Assembly (NCBI GenBank): GCA_028716045.1
Contig: JAQUQO010000001.1
Span: 192,942-256,941, forward strand
Length of the DNA: 64,000 nucleotides
Direction: 5' to 3'
DNA from: Patescibacteria group bacterium
Lineage (GTDB): Bacteria > Patescibacteriota > Patescibacteriia > JAQUQO01
In this document: positions 1 to 50,988 of the stretch, piece after piece
How positions within the stretch are numbered: position 1 is the first letter of the stretch
Layout of the letters: every line of letters starts with the position of its first letter
Notes under the pieces: model-generated
Database searches by the model: none
Told to the model about the DNA's origin: nothing
The model's input: the letters and a program-made list of their open reading frames with translations, nothing else
Translations under genes and position numbers: made by a program

Positions 1-492
1 GTTTGGAAATCAGCGTCTACGCCACGGTGGTTTACGAGATAAAATAGCTGATAGCTAACAGACTACCGACTACAGCTTATGAGTTTTAGATTTGAAAATT
101 TAGAAATTTGGCAATTAAGTCGTTCTTTTGCGGGAGAAATTTACAGAAAAACCAAGAATTTCCCCAAAGAAGAAATTTTTGGGTTAGTTTCTCAATTAAG
201 ACGTGCCGCCATTTCTATTGTTTTAAATATCGCAGAGGGGAGTGATAGAAAGTCGGATATGGAATTTATTAGATTTTTAAGAATATCCGTTGCTTCTTTA
301 GATGAGGTTATTGCCGCTTTGTATATTGCTTTAGATCAAGAGTTTATGATGAAAGATGACTTTGATGCGCTTTATGCAGAAGCAAATATGTTGGCGGCTA
401 AGATAAATGCTTTGGTAAATTCAATTAAGAAATAATTATATTGGTTAGCGGTTTTAGCTGTAGTCAGTAAGCCGTAGACCGTAAGCTTTTTT
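1..492. repeat. Imperfect inverted repeats built of GACTAC/GTCTAC units bracketing the four-helix-bundle ORF. Left arm (1-78) reads ...cgtctacgcc...agactaccgactacagc; right arm (436-492) reads gctgtagtcagtaagccgtagaccgtaagc.
   Basis: Read directly: the reverse complement of the right arm carries the same ordered GTCTAC ... GACTAC-GACTAC-AGC modules as the left arm. The same family recurs at 4975-5047. The left arm may extend beyond the window start. Confidence 0.5.
79..435 (+). CDS. Four-helix-bundle protein (family of the so-called 23S rRNA-intervening-sequence / 'S23 ribosomal' proteins)
   Basis: 118 aa with the characteristic N-terminus FxxLxVWQxS...SIxxNIAEG of the TIGR02436-type four-helix-bundle proteins. 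Nested between inverted repeats. Confidence 0.7.
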   Translation: MSFRFENLEIWQLSRSFAGEIYRKTKNFPKEEIFGLVSQLRRAAISIVLNIAEGSDRKSDMEFIRFLRISVASLDEVIAALYIALDQEFMMKDDFDALYAEANMLAAKINALVNSIKK

Positions 493-2791: not shown

Positions 2792-3280
2792 ATGAAAGCT
2801 TTTAAGATGGTGGTTATTATCGTTAATTTGGCGATTATTATGCTTTTGATTCAAGGAAGCGTCGCCGTGCAATCCAAAACCCCCTCGCCTTTGCCCGAGG
2901 AAAAAGCCGAGGTAATGCTTGCCTTCGTCAGTTGCAATTTTGACACCGAAAGCGGCTGCCCGGGGAAAAACCAGATATGTTGCAGGGACTGGTGTGTGCC
3001 CAAAGATCAGTGTGCCAGTTTTTTAAACAGATTGGAGGGGTCAAAACAGAATCAGCAAGCAAGTAATTCGCAAGACAGTAAAATCGAGCAGGTTAAAAAT
3101 TTTGATTGCCAGCAGTTAAAAGAGATTATTGCTAACGATCCGGACATCCTGAAAAAAGTAACTAAGGCTATTGAAGCCAAAAAAAGCAAGTCTGCCGCTC
3201 CTACCAAGGAGGAGCAAAAGATGTCGCCTGACAGAAGTACCGGCTACTTTTGTAACGGCTGGCGATGCGAGTATCGTTGA
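2792..3280 (+). CDS. Small secreted cysteine-rich protein (signal peptide, 10 Cys)
   Basis: N-terminal hydrophobic signal peptide; Cys-rich mature region; no recognisable family. Confidence 0.5.
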   Translation: MKAFKMVVIIVNLAIIMLLIQGSVAVQSKTPSPLPEEKAEVMLAFVSCNFDTESGCPGKNQICCRDWCVPKDQCASFLNRLEGSKQNQQASNSQDSKIEQVKNFDCQQLKEIIANDPDILKKVTKAIEAKKSKSAAPTKEEQKMSPDRSTGYFCNGWRCEYR

Positions 3281-3303
3281 CAGTACATTTTGAGTTTATT
3301 AAA

Positions 3304-3340
3304 ACACCGCCCTTATTATAAACGGGCGGTTTTTATTTTT
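3304..3340 (+). terminator. Rho-independent terminator
   Basis: accgccc...gggcggt stem followed by a T-run. Confidence 0.6.
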
Positions 3341-3357
3341 GAAAAAATCGCTGATAT

Positions 3358-4968
3358 TTGCTATTATTCATTCATAATATGATTAAACGCGGAAAGATTA
3401 GAAAAAATAAGAACAATAGCCCGTTGGTTTTGATTATTCTTGACGGCTGGGGTTTATCTAAAGAAAAAAAGGGTAATGCCATTGCCTTGGCTAATCCCAA
3501 AAATTTCAATCATTTTTGGGATAATTATTGGCACACCACTTTGTTTGCTCACGGTAAAAACGTTGGCCTTTTGCCAAATCAAGAAGGCAATTCCGAGGCC
3601 GGTCATTTGAATATCGGCGCTGGCAGAATCGTCAAACAGGACGTGGTTTATATTAACGAAGCGATTAAGAACGGAACTTTTTTTAAGAATACCGCTTTTA
3701 AAGAGACCTTAAAATACGCGAAAAAACATAATAGCAAAGTTCATTTAATGGGTCTGCTTTCTAATGGTCAAAGCGCGCACGCTTATCCTTTACATTTATA
3801 TTCTTTATTGAAGTTAGTTCATGAGTCGGGTATAAAAAAAGTTTTTCTGCACCTTTTTACCGATGGGCGCGATACGACCCGCTTTGCCGCTCCGCGGCTG
3901 ATTAAAGAATTAAAACAACGGATGTTTCCAGAACAAAAAATCGCTTCCATCATCGGGCGTTTTTACGCCATGGACCGGAATAAATATTGGGAAAGAACTG
4001 AAGCCGCTTATAACGCTATGGTTTTAGGCAAGGGTCTTAAGGCAAAAAATGAAATGGAAGCTATCACTTCCGCTTATAATCGCGGAGAAACGGATGAGTT
4101 TATCAAACCGACAGTTATCGTTAACGCCGCCGGAAAGCCCTTGACAACGATTGGCGATAAGGACGCCGTAATATTTTTTAATTTACGAAGTGACAGGGCA
4201 AGACAGCTCGCCAAGCCGTTTGTGCAGGCGAATTTCGAAAAAAGTAATGGCCGGGTTTTCAAAAGAAAAAAAGTTTTAAAAAATATCCGTTTTTGCGCTT
4301 TGACTGATTTTGGTCCGGACCTAAATCACATTTGGACGGCTTTTCCAAGCCATAACGTGGAAAAAAGTTTGCCGTTTGTTTTGGGGAAAAATAGTTTAAG
4401 ACAGCTCTATATCGCTGAAAGTGAAAAATACGCCCACATCACTTATTTTATCAACGGTGGCCATGCTGACCCAATCGGTAAAGAAGAGAGAATGAGGATT
4501 CCTTCTCCCCATGTTGACAGTTATGATAAGATTCCAGAGATGAGTGCTTTTAAAATAGCCAGTCGGGCAGTGGGGGCTTTAAAGTCTGGCAAATATAATT
4601 TTATAGCGGTTAATTTCGCTAATCCGGATATGGTGGGCCATACAGGAAATTTAGCGGCCGCAGTTAAGGCCATAAAAGCGGTTGATGAATGTATTGGTAA
4701 AATTTCCCGTGAGGCGGTTAGCAACGGCGGTTTGGCAATTATTACCGCCGACCATGGAAACGCGGAGAGCATGTATGATAAAAGTAAAAAAGAAATTTTG
4801 ACGGAGCATTCAAGAAATCCGGTACCATTTATTTTGGCCGGCAAGAAATATAAATTTAAAAAGGGAAAGAAAATATCCAAAGGTATTTTGGCAGATATAA
4901 CACCGACTATTTTAAAGATTTTAAATATATCAAAACCAAGAGAAATGGCAGGGAAAAGTTTAGTCTAA
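3358..4968 (+). CDS. gpmI: 2,3-bisphosphoglycerate-independent phosphoglycerate mutase (iPGM), paralog 1
   Basis: LIILDGWGL...GNSEAGHLNIGAGRIV; 536 aa. Confidence 0.85.
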   Translation: MLLFIHNMIKRGKIRKNKNNSPLVLIILDGWGLSKEKKGNAIALANPKNFNHFWDNYWHTTLFAHGKNVGLLPNQEGNSEAGHLNIGAGRIVKQDVVYINEAIKNGTFFKNTAFKETLKYAKKHNSKVHLMGLLSNGQSAHAYPLHLYSLLKLVHESGIKKVFLHLFTDGRDTTRFAAPRLIKELKQRMFPEQKIASIIGRFYAMDRNKYWERTEAAYNAMVLGKGLKAKNEMEAITSAYNRGETDEFIKPTVIVNAAGKPLTTIGDKDAVIFFNLRSDRARQLAKPFVQANFEKSNGRVFKRKKVLKNIRFCALTDFGPDLNHIWTAFPSHNVEKSLPFVLGKNSLRQLYIAESEKYAHITYFINGGHADPIGKEERMRIPSPHVDSYDKIPEMSAFKIASRAVGALKSGKYNFIAVNFANPDMVGHTGNLAAAVKAIKAVDECIGKISREAVSNGGLAIITADHGNAESMYDKSKKEILTEHSRNPVPFILAGKKYKFKKGKKISKGILADITPTILKILNISKPREMAGKSLV

Positions 4969-4974
4969 TTAATC

Positions 4975-5047
4975 GCTAATAGCTAATGGACTACGAACTA
5001 CCGTCGAAACTGCTGCCGTAGTCGGTAGTCCATAAGCTCTAAGCTAA
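4975..5047. repeat. Empty copy of the GACTAC-unit palindromic element: gctaatagctaatggactacgaactaccg - loop - cgtagtcggtagtcc...
   Basis: Imperfect hairpin; the left arm is near-identical to the left flank of the four-helix-bundle gene (gctRatagctaa..gactacNgactac). Confidence 0.55.
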
Positions 5048-5050
5048 TCT

Positions 5051-6640
5051 ATGAATGAAGTAATAAAAATTCCAAAACCGATTGTTCTCATTATTCTTGA
5101 TGGTTGGGGAGTGGCTCCGCCGGGCGCGGGCAATGCCATTACCGAGGCCGATACCCCCAATTTTGATAAAATGGTTAATTCATATCCAGCCATGGTTTTG
5201 AAAGCTTCCGGCGAGGTGGTTGGCTTGGGTGAAGGGGAGGCGGGTAATTCGGAAGCCGGTCATGCTACTATCGGCAGCGGGCGGATTTTTTATAAAGATT
5301 TAGTACGGATTAGCAAAACGATAAGGGAAGGCGTTTTGTTAAAAAACAAAAAATTACTCGGCGCTTTTAAACATGCCGCAAAACATAATTCCGACCTTCA
5401 TTTAGTCGGGCTTTTAAGTGACGGCGGTAAGGAAAGCCACAAAGAACATCTTTACGCCCTTTTAGATATGGCGCGCTCCGTGGGTTGGCAAGGAAAAATT
5501 TTTATCCATGCGCTTTTAGATGGTCGGGATGTGGCTTTTAATTCCGGAGAAGATTTTATCAAGGAATTACTGCAAAAGATGCCGCCGGAAGCGAAAATCA
5601 CTTCTCTTTGTGGGCGTTCTTACGCCCTAGACCGCGATGGCCATTGGGAGAAAACCGAAAAAGCTTATCGGGCCATCAGCGAAGGGAAAAGCGAGAAAAA
5701 TTTCAACGACGCTATCTCCGCCATTGAAAATTTTTATGAAAATAAAATTTACGATGAAGATATCCCGCCAATTGTTTTTACTGATGCTCAGGGGACGCCG
5801 TTGGGAAAGATAAAAGATAATGATGCGGTAATTTTCTTTAATTTCGGAATTAGCCGTCTTGAACAATTAATAAAAGCGTTTGCTGATAAAAGATTCAACA
5901 GTTTTAAAAAACAGCCGTTAAAAAATCTTCATTTGGTTTCTTTTTGGAGCCGAGACAGGGGGCTGGCGCTTTCTTTGCCTTTCCCCCGTGAAGTCGCCAG
6001 ACATTATTTAGCCAAAGAATTAAACGAGGCTGGATTGAAGCAGCTTCATGTTGCCGAAAGCGAAAAGTACGCCCACGCCACTTATTATTTTGACGCTTTT
6101 AACGAGGAAAAGGTAAAGGGAGAGGAGTGGGAGCTAATTCCTTCCAAGGGTTCCACGTGTATTGAAGAGCCGGCGATGAGCGCTCGGGAAATAAAAGACA
6201 GAGTGATACGCGCCATTAACAAAGGAGAAGAGGATTTTATAGTTCTAAATTTTGCCAACGCCGACATGCTCGGCCATTACGGGGATTTGGAGGCGGCCAA
6301 AAAGGGGATTGAAGTTTTGGATAAATGCATCGGAGAAATAAAAGAAACAGTTTTATCTAAAGATGGGGTGTTATTTATTGTTGGTAGCCATGGCAATGCC
6401 GAAGAAATTTTACATAGCGGCACCGGCCAAACGAAAAAGACCCATACCGCCAATCCGGTTCCTTTTCTGATTGTCGGCGATGCTTACGAAGGCAGAACCG
6501 GCGGAGTGGAAGTGCCCGGTGGAGACCTTTCTTTGGTAAAACCAGTCGGGAGTTTAATTGACGTCGCCCCGACCATTTTGAAGGTGATGAATCTAAAAAA
6601 GCCGAAAGAAATGAAGGGCAAATCTTTACTTAATAAATAA
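5051..6640 (+). CDS. gpmI: 2,3-bisphosphoglycerate-independent phosphoglycerate mutase (iPGM), paralog 2 (more canonical)
   Basis: IVLIILDGWGVAPPGAGNAITEADTPNFDKM...GNSEAGHATIGSGRIF; 529 aa. Confidence 0.9.
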   Translation: MNEVIKIPKPIVLIILDGWGVAPPGAGNAITEADTPNFDKMVNSYPAMVLKASGEVVGLGEGEAGNSEAGHATIGSGRIFYKDLVRISKTIREGVLLKNKKLLGAFKHAAKHNSDLHLVGLLSDGGKESHKEHLYALLDMARSVGWQGKIFIHALLDGRDVAFNSGEDFIKELLQKMPPEAKITSLCGRSYALDRDGHWEKTEKAYRAISEGKSEKNFNDAISAIENFYENKIYDEDIPPIVFTDAQGTPLGKIKDNDAVIFFNFGISRLEQLIKAFADKRFNSFKKQPLKNLHLVSFWSRDRGLALSLPFPREVARHYLAKELNEAGLKQLHVAESEKYAHATYYFDAFNEEKVKGEEWELIPSKGSTCIEEPAMSAREIKDRVIRAINKGEEDFIVLNFANADMLGHYGDLEAAKKGIEVLDKCIGEIKETVLSKDGVLFIVGSHGNAEEILHSGTGQTKKTHTANPVPFLIVGDAYEGRTGGVEVPGGDLSLVKPVGSLIDVAPTILKVMNLKKPKEMKGKSLLNK

Positions 6641-9268: not shown

Positions 9269-9326
9269 CTTGACCCGTCGGTCGCGACCGACGGGTCTTG
9301 ACGAAATTGTCAAAATGTGATATATT
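9269..9326 (+). promoter_or_regulatory. Hairpin-promoter module, copy A: cTTGAC-[gacccgtcggtcgcgaccgacgggtc]-TTGACG-17-TATATT
   Basis: Perfect 26-bp palindrome 9272-9297; -35 at 9298-9303; -10 at 9321-9326. Confidence 0.6.
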
Positions 9327-19519: not shown

Positions 19520-19577
19520 CTTGACCCGTCAGTCGCGACTGACGGGTCTTGACAAATCCTTCAAAACATGCTATGAT
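19520..19577 (+). promoter_or_regulatory. Hairpin-promoter module, copy B: cTTGAC-[gacccgtcagtcgcgactgacgggtc]-TTGACA-17-TATGAT
   Basis: Perfect palindrome 19523-19548; consensus -35 and -10 with 17-bp spacing. Confidence 0.6.
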
Positions 19578-23315: not shown

Positions 23316-23400
23316 CTTGACCCGTTGGTCGCGACCGATGGGTCTTGACCAGTCAGTCGCGACTGACTGGTCTTGACAGATTTTTAGGGTTTGTTATAAT
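23316..23400 (+). promoter_or_regulatory. Hairpin-promoter module, copy C. Tandem double hairpin (23319-23344 and 23347-23372) sharing TTGAC units, then TTGACA-16-TATAAT.
   Basis: First hairpin preserved by two G-T wobble pairs on the + strand. Second hairpin perfect. -10 at 23395-23400. Confidence 0.6.
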
Positions 23401-23552
23401 AAGTTAAAAGTTAATAATTTAGTTAATTTTTAACCACAGACAGCGGGGTCCCGAGCGTTCGGGATTAAACCCAAACCCTGCCGAGGTTAGCAGAAGATAT
23501 TCTTAGTATCTGTGGTTTTTCCGCAGATTTTTTATTTTTAATCCATAAAAAT
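23401..23552 (+). promoter_or_regulatory. Probable L10 (rplJ) leader autoregulatory structure
   Basis: About 150-nt structured leader (ccacagaca...tatctgtgg outer stem with internal GC-rich hairpins) directly upstream of rplJ, as in known L10 leaders. Class assignment is by position, not by covariance model. Confidence 0.4.
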
Positions 23553-28250: not shown

Positions 28251-28303
28251 CACGTCGGTCGCGACTGACGTGTCTTGACAAATTCAGCTTTTTATGCTAT
28301 ATT
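28246..28303 (+). promoter_or_regulatory. Hairpin-promoter module, copy D: cTTGAC-[gacacgtcggtcgcgactgacgtgtc]-TTGACA-17-TATATT. The tsaB stop codon lies inside the first TTGAC.
   Basis: Palindrome 28249-28274 closed by one G-T wobble on the + strand; -10 at 28298-28303. Confidence 0.6.
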
Positions 28304-37703: not shown

Positions 37704-38381
37704 ATGGCAGGAGGGGATAAAAAGTTTAATCGCCAGTCGATTCGTTTAAAAAATTATGATTATAGTGAATCGGGATATTATTTCGTAACGATTTGCGTAC
37801 AAGGTAGTAAATGTTTATTTGGCGAGGTGGTTAATGGTGAGGTGATATTAAATAGTATTGGCGAAATGATTAAAAAATGGTGGCTGGAATTAGAAAATAA
37901 ATTTTTCCGCGTTGAATTAGATAAATTTATTGTAATGCCGAACCATTTTCATGGAATAATAAATATAACCATAGGGATTGTAGGGGCAGACCTGCGTGTC
38001 TGCTCTAATCTTAAAAAGGGCGAACACGTAGGTTCGCCCCTACACAATCGCGAACACGTAGGTTCGCCCCTACACAATCGCGAACACGTAGGTTCGCCCC
38101 TACACAATCGCGAACACGTAGGTTCGCCCCTACATGATATTGTAAAATGGTTTAAAACAATGACGACGAATGAATATATTAAAAATGTTAAACAAGGCGG
38201 TTGGCCGCCATTCGATCGGAGATTATGGCAGCGCAATTATTGGGAGCACGTAATCCGTACCGAAAAATCATTAAATAATATTCGTGAATATATACTGAGC
38301 AATCCCGAAAATTGGAGTGGCGAAGCGGAGGATTTTAATGTATTTGTGGGTAAATTTATTGTTAAATCCGCCGCTTTATGA
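37704..38381 (+). CDS. REP-associated tyrosine transposase (RAYT / IS200-like TnpA_REP) with an in-frame repeat insertion
   Basis: YYFVTICVQG ... MPNHFHGII (HuH) ... RNYWEHV (catalytic Tyr). Decapeptide HVGSPLHNRE repeated about 4 times. Confidence 0.8.
   Translation: MAGGDKKFNRQSIRLKNYDYSESGYYFVTICVQGSKCLFGEVVNGEVILNSIGEMIKKWWLELENKFFRVELDKFIVMPNHFHGIINITIGIVGADLRVCSNLKKGEHVGSPLHNREHVGSPLHNREHVGSPLHNREHVGSPLHDIVKWFKTMTTNEYIKNVKQGGWPPFDRRLWQRNYWEHVIRTEKSLNNIREYILSNPENWSGEAEDFNVFVGKFIVKSAAL
38021..38140 (+). repeat. 3.8 tandem copies of a 30-bp unit (cgaacacgtaggttcgcccctacacaatcg), each containing hairpin gcgaac-acGTAG-gttcgc, embedded in-frame in the RAYT gene
   Basis: Read directly; unit length 30 = 10 codons. 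Confidence 0.9.
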
Positions 38382-46026: not shown

Positions 46027-46097
46027 CTCGGGGGGTTCGTATAATGGTAGTACAGGGGTCTCACCCGTCAGTCGCGACTGACGGGTGTCTCCAAAAC
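46027..46097 (+). pseudogene. Partial 5' copy of tRNA-Trp (acceptor through anticodon loop) with a 25-bp GTCGCGAC-core hairpin (46063-46087) inserted in the anticodon loop
   Basis: ctcggggggttcgtataatggtagtacaggggtctc + acccgtcagtcgcgactgacgggtg + tctccaaaac; the flanking tc(tc) is duplicated. Confidence 0.6.
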
Positions 46098-50927: not shown

Positions 50928-50988
50928 ACAATATCACAAACTTAGAAATTTGTCAAGGCCAGTCAGTCGCGACTAACGGGTCAAGCCC
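50928..50988 (-). promoter_or_regulatory. Hairpin-promoter module, copy F (minus strand; degenerate hairpin, TTGACA-17-TATTGT)
   Basis: Reverse complement reads cttgacccgttagtcgcgactgactggccttgacaa...; weaker -10. Confidence 0.4.

Follow-up and report, generated by a model that had tools for sequence, protein, structure and literature searches.

The locus described here is best introduced through the intervening sequences (IVSs) of bacterial rRNA genes. In Coxiella burnetii, the 23S rRNA IVS carries an S23p open reading frame (ORF) in the loop of an inverted-repeat stem that is cut by RNase III, and two to three tandem heptamers (GACAGAT), whose number varies between strains, lie directly 5′ of the ATG (PMC4990558). 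An old hypothesis regards the IVS as a mobile element whose ORF serves mobility, and a homopentameric toroid has been reported as the form of the S23p family (PMC4990558). In bacteria of the Candidate Phyla Radiation (CPR), 23S_rRNA_IVP ORFs are scattered over several 16S and 23S insertion sites (PMC11270868), and the corresponding family PF05635 resembles Avd of diversity-generating retroelements (DGRs) (PMC10053308). Heptamers have also been described in another setting: intergenic direct repeats occur in Beggiatoaceae, Cyanobacteria and Bacteroidetes with "no mechanism evident" (PMC4679880), and for the short tandemly repeated repetitive (STRR) and TAACTGA heptamers a patchy taxonomic distribution suggests horizontal spread, while an unidentified binding partner has been postulated (PMC4679880; 10.1101/2022.06.06.494920). 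Beyond the single Coxiella observation, we found no literature link of the S23p family to heptamer repeats; PMC4679880 and 10.1101/2022.06.06.494920 are silent on the family. Here we analyze a gene of this four-helix-bundle (4HB) family that lies between inverted arrays of 7-nt units, together with an ORF-less palindrome of the same unit family, in a 64,000-nt stretch of the genome of a Patescibacteria group bacterium (contig JAQUQO010000001.1, positions 192,942 to 256,941; hereafter the window). All coordinates are positions in the window, which represents the forward strand.

Our interpretation, to which we assign a probability of roughly 0.6, is that positions 39–494 constitute a self-contained IVS-type cassette that was gained as a unit in an mRNA operon, and that 4975–5044 is its ORF-less sibling; a mechanism based on a stem and on recognition by the protein is what we infer.

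A four-helix-bundle gene between inverted heptad arrays

The two elements and their immediate context comprise the following features, with the supporting evidence in brackets.

39–77, + strand: left (upstream) arm (inverted repeat, motif searches, co-fold against shuffles)
79–435, + strand: 4HB protein gene of the S23p or '23S rRNA intervening-sequence protein' family, Avd-like, 118 aa (PF05635, TIGR02436, 2GSC, alignment, PHROG Avd)
456–494, + strand: right (downstream) arm (inverted repeat, direct repeat, period-14 tandem repeat at 456–486, co-fold)
4975–5044, + strand: ORF-less palindrome of GACTAC-type units (inverted repeat, RNA fold, shared motifs; absent from the orthologous spacer of the relative L153)
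1–47, + strand: 3′ end of the upstream SIMPL-domain gene (PF04402), stop codon TAG at 45–47 (context, outside the cassette)
493–1767, + strand: enolase gene, directly 3′ of the cassette (gene calls; context)
3358–4968, + strand: iPGM paralog 1 (L153 ortholog 74% identical; context)
5051–6640, + strand: iPGM paralog 2 (L153 ortholog 61% identical; 41% identical to paralog 1; context)

The product of 79–435 is a member of the PF05635 '23S_rRNA_IVP' family (E 2.7e-34, 118 bits, cutoff 33.8), with residues 6–110 covering profile positions 1–105 of 106. The TIGR02436 profile 'four helix bundle protein' was matched with E 8.4e-34 and 116 bits (cutoff 24). By sequence match, the nearest solved structure was a stand-alone, pentameric Xanthomonas protein (PDB 2GSC, 5 chains; E 3.6e-19, residues 5–117), and an alignment revealed that all 21 residues invariant among 73 homologs are present. 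The match to the PHROG Avd family was weak (E 4e-5), and a residue count from the sequence indicated an approximately neutral protein, in contrast to the strongly basic Avd. No second 4HB paralog was found in the window, PADLOC returned no defence-system match for the locus, and a tblastn search of phage genomes with the protein gave no match.

The initial annotation had described this gene as nested between palindromic GACTAC-type arms, and our searches confirmed this arrangement. The arms at 39–77 and 456–494 comprise 39 nt each and are 72% complementary in the inverted-repeat search, with perfect pairing over the innermost 10 nt. Read in register, the left arm consists of GCTGATA GCTAACA GACTACC GACTACA (47–74) and GCT (75–77); the right arm consists of AGC (456–458) and TGTAGTC AGTAAGC CGTAGAC CGTAAGC (459–486), followed by TTTTTTAT. 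The left-arm units start on the SIMPL stop codon (TAG 45–47) and the arm ends 1 nt 5′ of the 4HB ATG, while the stem, at its base, extends into the start codon of enolase (493). The complementarity suffices for an imperfect stem of ~35 bp with the SIMPL stop and the enolase start at its base. Co-folding of both arms yielded −28.8 kcal/mol compared with −16.0 ± 3.0 kcal/mol for 500 shuffles, none of which was as good. After addition of the 9.9 kb upstream of position 1, the similarity between the flanks persisted: the arms were unchanged and no better partner appeared.

As in an IVS, terminal inverted repeats that can form a stem thus enclose the ORF, and heptamers precede its ATG, namely the four units at 47–74, which end 4 nt before the start codon. 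A likeness to 23S rRNA IVSs had been proposed from the sequence beforehand, and it agrees with the Coxiella element, in which the S23p ORF is located in an RNase III-cut stem with heptamers 5′ of the ATG (PMC4990558). Intergenic tandem 7-nt arrays abutting a start codon, the arrangement known from STRR/TAACTGA-type repeats, were found at 47–74, 459–486, 4975–5002 and 5018–5044; those at 47–74, 459–486 and 5018–5044 stop 4, 6 and 6 nt short of the ATGs at 79, 493 and 5051, respectively. The cassette is not inserted in a 23S or 16S rRNA helix; it lies between the SIMPL and enolase genes, and the window contains no rRNA gene. Neither the full cassette nor the solo palindrome gave an Rfam match, and no promoter-like or terminator-like site was found at 39–494 or 4975–5044. 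No T-run follows either element (the tails are ATAAGC... and the hairpin base), so that neither qualifies as an intrinsic terminator. No target-site duplication was found around 39–494.

The second element had been assigned to the same family as an ORF-less copy between the two iPGM genes. Indeed, the solo palindrome of 70 nt fills the 82-nt spacer between the iPGM genes 3358–4968 and 5051–6640. Its two 27-nt arms (4975–5001 and 5018–5044) show 81% complementarity, with 16 nt between them. The left units read GCTAATA GCTAATG GACTACG AACTACC (4975–5002), followed by a loop (5003–5017) and the right units GTAGTCG GTAGTCC ATAAGCT CTAAGC (5018–5044), and the predicted RNA fold reached −30.4 kcal/mol (z = −5.9). 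The relationship to the full element is supported by shared motifs: GACTACNRACTAC occurs three times in the window (0.10 expected), confined to the full cassette and the solo palindrome, and the 16-mer ATAGCTAAYRGACTAC is found exactly at 51 and 4979. In direct reading, the left arm of the full element is ~81% identical to both solo arms. No other GACTAC-type heptad arrays were detected in the window, the remaining rows of period 7 being short AT-rich runs.

The gene calls of the source contig place both elements in a co-directional cluster that encodes S2, EF-Ts, PSP1, GAPDH, PGK, the SIMPL-domain protein, the 4HB protein, enolase, an HD protein, a hypothetical protein, two iPGMs and a CBS protein. 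For comparison, we used the two closest relatives according to enolase, L152 and L153 (86% and 83% identical). Both keep the order S2–Ts–PSP1–GAPDH–PGK–SIMPL–enolase, with SIMPL–enolase spacers of 18 and 27 nt that lack a 4HB gene. In L153, the iPGM genes are 4 nt apart (TAAttttATG) and the hairpin is missing. Since SIMPL abuts enolase in the relatives and the iPGM genes of one of them are separated by only 4 nt, the sequence comparison indicates that the full cassette and the solo palindrome are probably both insertions. A direct repeat, TAATC, flanks the solo palindrome at 4970–4974 and 5045–5049, and the empty L153 site reads TTAATTTTATG; the repeat may represent a 5-bp target-site duplication or a coincidence.

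Each window iPGM has a separate ortholog in L153 (74% and 61% identical), and the paralogs are only 41% identical to each other. The tandem pair is therefore older than these lineages and the hairpin came later, which disproves the earlier suggestion that the hairpin had caused or marked the duplication, as does the hairpin-free 4-nt spacing of the L153 genes. The SIMPL–enolase spacers of the relatives look 7-periodic themselves (L152 6983–7000, CCTATAA CCTATTC; L153 2484–2510, AACATAA AACAAAT AACATAA AATATAT); these could be arm remnants or independent heptad arrays.

Heptad arms across the protein family

We surveyed 80 metagenome loci that had been chosen by 4HB protein similarity only (37–66% identity); 74 4HB loci entered the flank statistics, and 157 ORFs from the same metagenome loci served as controls. 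Short, degenerate arms and the occasional solo array beside a control gene caused the first statistics (lag-7 thresholds and duplex energies) to separate cases and controls poorly; percentile-based tests were used instead. An upstream 7-nt array and a complementary downstream array were observed at nearly every sampled 4HB gene. The summed best-window lag-7 self-match of the flanks had a median of 34 compared with 21–23 at lags 5, 6, 8 and 9 (74 loci), and the control ORFs (n = 157) gave 24 at lag 7 and 23–24 at the other lags. Complementarity between the upstream and downstream flanks exceeded the 95th percentile of the controls in 68% of the 4HB genes. The arms had a median length of 39 nt, ended 15 nt before the ATG and started 13 nt after the stop codon. 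Units varied by locus, including GACTACN, GACTTCN, GACTATA, TTAATGG, GGATAGT, GAGAGTT, GGAAGTN, CAGACTN and others, and the cassettes were located in tight operon spacers.

A tblastn search of plasmids returned 26 records, mostly from Nostocales, of which 14 were fetched. Approximately 12 of these 14 4HB genes were flanked by heptad arrays on one or both sides, usually as inverted pairs; the 4HB gene of the Calothrix PCC 7716 plasmid had no flanking heptad array. The units of the plasmid-borne genes were as follows.

Nostoc edaphicum: GGGAACA / TGTTCCC
N. punctiforme and Nostoc ATCC 53789: GTCAGGA
Calothrix brevissima: GGGTGTA / TACACCC
Geminocystis: GGGAAAA / GGGAAGA
Stanieria and Nostoc PCC 7120: CTCTGCC, chiefly downstream
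Riemerella: GGTTCAA / TTGAACC
Picosynechococcus, between cas10 and cmr3: GGAGATA / TATCTCC
Azospirillum: GGACAGA / TCTGTCC

Across phyla, then, the 4HB protein family seems to be characterized by inverted heptad arrays.

Some insertion sites are described here in their own right. In Pseudanabaena galeata (L159, 4HB gene at 392–751), the plasmid-borne cassette is located inside a CRISPR-cas operon, between cas6 and cas4, and is flanked in direct orientation by about 14 copies of AAAGCTA upstream and about 10 copies of AAAGCCA downstream. The plasmid cassette of Picosynechococcus PCC 7003 (L160, 4HB gene at 386–742) lies between cas10/cmr2 and cmr3. In eight CPR contigs (L072, L073, L074, L076, L079, L080, L082 and L088), a 4HB cassette appears to occupy the nusG|rplK site; the flanking genes were identified by their terminal codons and not by a profile search. 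The units of these cassettes differ (GACTAC-type versus GGCTTTC/GACTTC-type), both arms having changed together at the subtype level.

Several observations connect gene and arms as one unit. The sharing of 6-mers between flanks rose with protein identity, from 3.9 (<40%) to 8.0 (50–60%) and 15.3 (≥60%), and this trend also held for pairs with non-homologous outer flanks, that is, for different insertion sites. On two contigs (L087 and L105), two 4HB genes were accompanied by different units; the unit is therefore cassette-specific and not simply genome-specific. The arrangement is also polar. G outnumbered C in the upstream arm at 28 of 37 loci (28 versus 9, p 0.003), and the GACTAC strand was upstream in every GACTAC-type case examined. 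ORF-less copies that share the unit of a nearby cassette were found in the window (4975–5044) and in L067, L078, L088, L110, L122 and L123. As the k-mer search for such same-unit clusters is noisy for AT-rich units (76 clusters compared with a null mean of 39 and a maximum of 74), only clear examples are cited here. One 6.3-kb metagenome contig (L148) contains two 4HB genes and several further CTGACTA/CTGATTA arrays or palindromes (1263–1810, 2995–3345, 4242–4348, 6250–6326); full and ORF-less copies form a local cluster there.

We also scanned a degenerate half-site pattern against one genome per species, the source genome not being among them, and 68 stretches were returned. At least 24 of these represented solo palindromes with GACTAC-type units, a short loop and at least two in-phase complementary units. 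Solo GACTAC-type palindromes occurred in many CPR lineages (Wolfebacteria, Saccharibacteria, Daviesbacteria, Levyibacteriota and others); some matches of the scan came from metagenome-assembled genomes (MAGs) labelled Gammaproteobacteria, and those from Chloroflexaceae were mostly long one-sided arrays. In four loci of the scan (L010, L046, L067, L071) an arm abutted a 4HB gene, with GACTAC always 5′ of the ATG. Long one-sided GACTACN-type arrays with no complementary arm nearby were noted in L004 (1380–1500), L018, L027 (2100–2230), L059, L040, L048, L053, L054 and L033, the hosts being Chloroflexaceae, Chloroflexota, Acidimicrobiia, Planctomycetota, Clostridia and Kapaibacterium MAGs. Within some of them the unit type switches, e.g., from GACTACC to ACTGGTC in L033. 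The idea that heptads act as three-frame stop arrays, 7 not being a multiple of 3, was rejected as a general explanation: stop codons were in mild excess, and ~30% of the arms stop all three frames.

Origin of the cassette and competing explanations

We envisage that the cassette was most likely inserted whole into the short SIMPL–enolase spacer of a conserved glycolytic operon, and that the ORF-less element at 4975–5044 was most likely gained in a 4-nt spacer between two ancient iPGM paralogs. Because neither element has a promoter-like or terminator-like site, the cassette would be transcribed by read-through within the operon transcript. By analogy with the rRNA members, the predicted stem might be a substrate of RNase III and/or a clamp that joins the flanks of the host RNA; such cutting or clamping would explain why insertions are tolerated in tight operons and in rRNA. 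If a trans-acting factor spreads or maintains the full and ORF-less copies, the 4HB protein is the sole candidate.

Several points weigh against this interpretation. That the heptad arrays would be recognition sites of the cassette's own, putatively pentameric ring protein is a step that we purely infer, and that protein has neither a catalytic motif nor a known role in mobility. The Coxiella ORF is apparently untranslated and decaying (PMC4990558). A search of the window for RNase III signature motifs was negative. In the 74 kb of the source genome analyzed, only two copies of the element were found, and a clear target-site duplication is absent, with only TAATC on either side of the solo copy. 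The window, L152 and L153 are approximately equidistant (SIMPL 68–71% identical), and a gain in the lineage of the window is therefore favoured by parsimony only and unproven. With respect to the stem, duplex energies of sense and antisense strands were tied, 38 to 38, in a test based on G·U pairs, so that no selected pairing was seen. Among 24 GACTAC-type solo palindromes, complementarity to the own arm was 14.8 compared with 15.3 to foreign arms, i.e., without excess. One-sided arrays (L004, L027) exist, as does a cassette with direct instead of inverted arrays (L159, on the Pseudanabaena plasmid). The tied duplex energies, the lack of own-arm covariation beyond the family consensus and the one-sided or direct arrays fit mirrored recognition sites as the primary nature of the arrays; the stem would then be a by-product, open to exploitation by hosts and elements alike.

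The strongest competitor, although in our estimate an unlikely one, assumes that the heptad palindromes are independent host hairpins of STRR type with roles in RNA stability, processing or regulation, that the 4HB gene targets their loops, and that 4975–5044 is an unoccupied target. In favour of this model, ORF-less palindromes are plentiful: the 24 or more solo GACTAC-type palindromes in other genomes have no 4HB gene within the 8-kb stretches around them, and seven pattern matches came from one Wolfebacteria assembly. One-sided arrays occur as well, and heptamer arrays 5′ of start codons have been described without a link to 4HB genes (PMC4679880; bioRxiv 10.1101/2022.06.06.494920). However, pre-existing hairpins fit poorly with arm sequences that track 4HB protein similarity across unrelated insertion sites, and with two cassettes with different units on one contig. 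Moreover, the relatives lack hairpin and gene at both sites, so that no empty target is seen there, and the polarity of the gene relative to the arms is fixed, which a symmetric target would not impose.

A second model, which we rate as improbable, explains the arms as GTAG-containing repetitive extragenic palindromic sequences (REPs) that were made and moved by the RAYT-like (REP-associated tyrosine transposase) Y1 transposase at 37704–38381, the 4HB gene having been trapped between two REPs. The arms do contain GTAG, and the ORF in question is of Y1_Tnp type (PF01797, 25.2 bits, cutoff 23). RAYT genes of REPIN/RAYT systems lie between inverted REPs. At 37704–38381, however, no such flanking REPs were found: the gene is 7 nt from its upstream neighbour and overlaps the downstream ORF, so that there is no room for them, and no GACTAC unit occurs within 9 kb. 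The gene has a different hairpin repeat of its own, GTAGGGGCGAACC, in four copies. Heptad arms, in turn, adjoin 4HB genes in Cyanobacteriota, Bacteroidota, Alphaproteobacteria and many CPR lineages. The proposal of the initial annotation that the arms are candidate substrates of this RAYT is unsupported, given the lack of nearby GACTAC units, the unrelated GTAGGGGCGAACC repeat and the fact that the arms travel with 4HB genes and not with Y1 transposases.

The RAYT-like ORF has a peculiarity of its own. It harbours a perfect in-frame tandem repeat of 30 nt × 3.8 at 38020–38134, which encodes NREHVGSPLH four times. Each 30-nt copy contains the GTAGGGGCGAACC hairpin motif, and a diverged inverted copy is located at 37979–38006. 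The repeat looks like a REP-like hairpin that has been expanded inside a transposase gene.

It is still less probable that the gene encodes the Avd accessory protein of a DGR, or a remnant of one, and that the repeats are relics of a template/variable repeat. The resemblance of PF05635 to Avd (PMC10053308) and the weak PHROG match (E 4e-5) would be in line with such an origin, but no reverse-transcriptase Pfam match is recorded among the genes called within 10 kb on either side (several of which are without any match), and the nearest structure is the stand-alone Xanthomonas protein 2GSC. The flanking repeats are tandem 7-nt units and not a 100-nt template/variable pair, the repeats within 1–520 consisting of the heptad arms and short chance matches only, and phage genomes gave no match. 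Finally, hairpins are common between genes, but fortuitous palindromes or ordinary intrinsic terminators or attenuators unrelated to the gene can be dismissed with near certainty in view of GACTACNRACTAC (3 occurrences, 0.10 expected), the strongly negative fold z-scores, the lack of a T-run or terminator-like call at either site and the recurrence of the architecture across the majority of the 4HB loci examined (74 from metagenomes, 14 from plasmids).

Returning to the cassette interpretation, the family-wide association with heptads suggests, and does not prove, that 4HB proteins are the missing partner of heptanucleotide repeats. In a more speculative extension, which we consider possible and yet clearly less probable than the cassette itself, the 4HB pentamer might be the sequence-specific partner of bacterial heptamer-repeat arrays, and ORF-less arrays (STRRs, TAACTGA repeats, the copy at 4975) might be its targets or offspring. 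The ring protein would recognize its own 7-nt unit, possibly with each subunit binding one unit, in the way TRAP reads triplet repeats. If true, this would constitute a protein–repeat system analogous to RAYT/REPIN on an Avd-like fold, and it would account both for the S23p ORF of rRNA intervening sequences and for the origin of heptanucleotide repeats. To our knowledge, that ORF has been without an assigned function since the early 1990s, and no origin or binding partner has so far been known for the heptanucleotide repeats found in cyanobacteria, giant sulfur bacteria and Bacteroidota. The window offers an IVS-type cassette outside rRNA that is accompanied by an ORF-less sibling, and the survey joins the protein family, the inverted heptad arrays and the presence or absence of whole units between related genomes. 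Two old puzzles are thereby turned into one testable hypothesis, for which Nostoc punctiforme, Riemerella anatipestifer and Picosynechococcus PCC 7003 are cultivable carriers. Furthermore, the cassettes are frequent passengers of tight operons (glycolysis, nusG|rplK, CRISPR-cas), which bears on annotation and on the reading of such genes as 'accessory'.

Apart from these elements, the window contains an unrelated palindrome family, cTTGACcc-GTCAGTCGCGACTGAC-gggtcTTGACa, for which the search gave six matches compared with 0.03 expected. Its positions are as follows.

9277–9292: cTTGACcc palindrome
19528–19543: cTTGACcc palindrome
23324–23367: cTTGACcc palindrome, two copies
28254–28269: cTTGACcc palindrome
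46067–46082: cTTGACcc palindrome
50962–50977: cTTGACcc palindrome

In at least four copies, a TATAAT-like hexamer follows 17 nt after the right-hand TTGACA; by this spacing, the palindrome overlies the −35 box of strong promoter-like sites. One example is located just 5′ of the L10 leader at 23416. The palindrome may function either as an operator bound by a global regulator or as a −35 element in both directions.

Comparison with known systems

The solo copy shares with miniature inverted-repeat transposable elements (MITEs) that it is short, non-coding, palindromic and intergenic and that it is missing from the orthologous site of a relative. It differs in that its arms are internally repetitive heptads, that a target-site duplication is uncertain (TAATC on both sides) and that no transposase is known. 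With Avd, the window protein has a homologous, putatively pentameric four-helix-bundle fold in common, and Avd binds nucleic acid and a polymerase partner. In contrast to Avd, the window protein is near-neutral, and its locus has no recorded reverse transcriptase nearby and no template/variable repeats.

A parallel in architecture is provided by REP/REPIN–RAYT systems, in which, as here, a small gene is bracketed by inverted short repeats, gene-less palindromic copies occur, the repeat is matched to the protein lineage and the location is intergenic. Nevertheless, the window protein is a four-helix bundle and not an HUH/Y1 enzyme, and its arms consist of tandem 7-nt units in variable number instead of a single GTAG-plus-hairpin module. 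We know of no biochemical link between the 4HB protein and the heptad repeat. REP/REPINs reach tens to hundreds of copies per genome; of the window element, two copies were found in the 74 kb analyzed. With STRR and TAACTGA heptamers, the window arrays share tandem 7-nt units in 2–14 copies that are intergenic and often lie a few nucleotides before a start codon. Arrays of this kind flank the plasmid 4HB genes of Nostoc, Calothrix, Geminocystis, Stanieria and Riemerella. The published repeats were, however, described as direct arrays without a gene, while here they form inverted pairs around a 4HB gene or are derived from such pairs.

The IVSs of 23S rRNA (Coxiella burnetii, Leptospira, Xanthomonas) share with the window cassette a PF05635 protein, an ORF in the loop of an inverted-repeat stem and heptamers 5′ of the ATG. 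Both have the ORF in sense orientation relative to the host transcript, both occur in ORF-less versions, and a mobile or selfish nature has long been suspected (PMC4990558, PMC11270868). Cutting of the stem by RNase III is known from the Coxiella IVS; for the window cassette it is putative. The cassette is further distinguished by its location in spacers of protein-coding operons instead of 23S helix 25 or 45, and by a protein that is well conserved and not decaying. Compared with the published IVS descriptions that we found, two features are new: inverted heptad arrays occur family-wide, and their unit co-varies with the protein.

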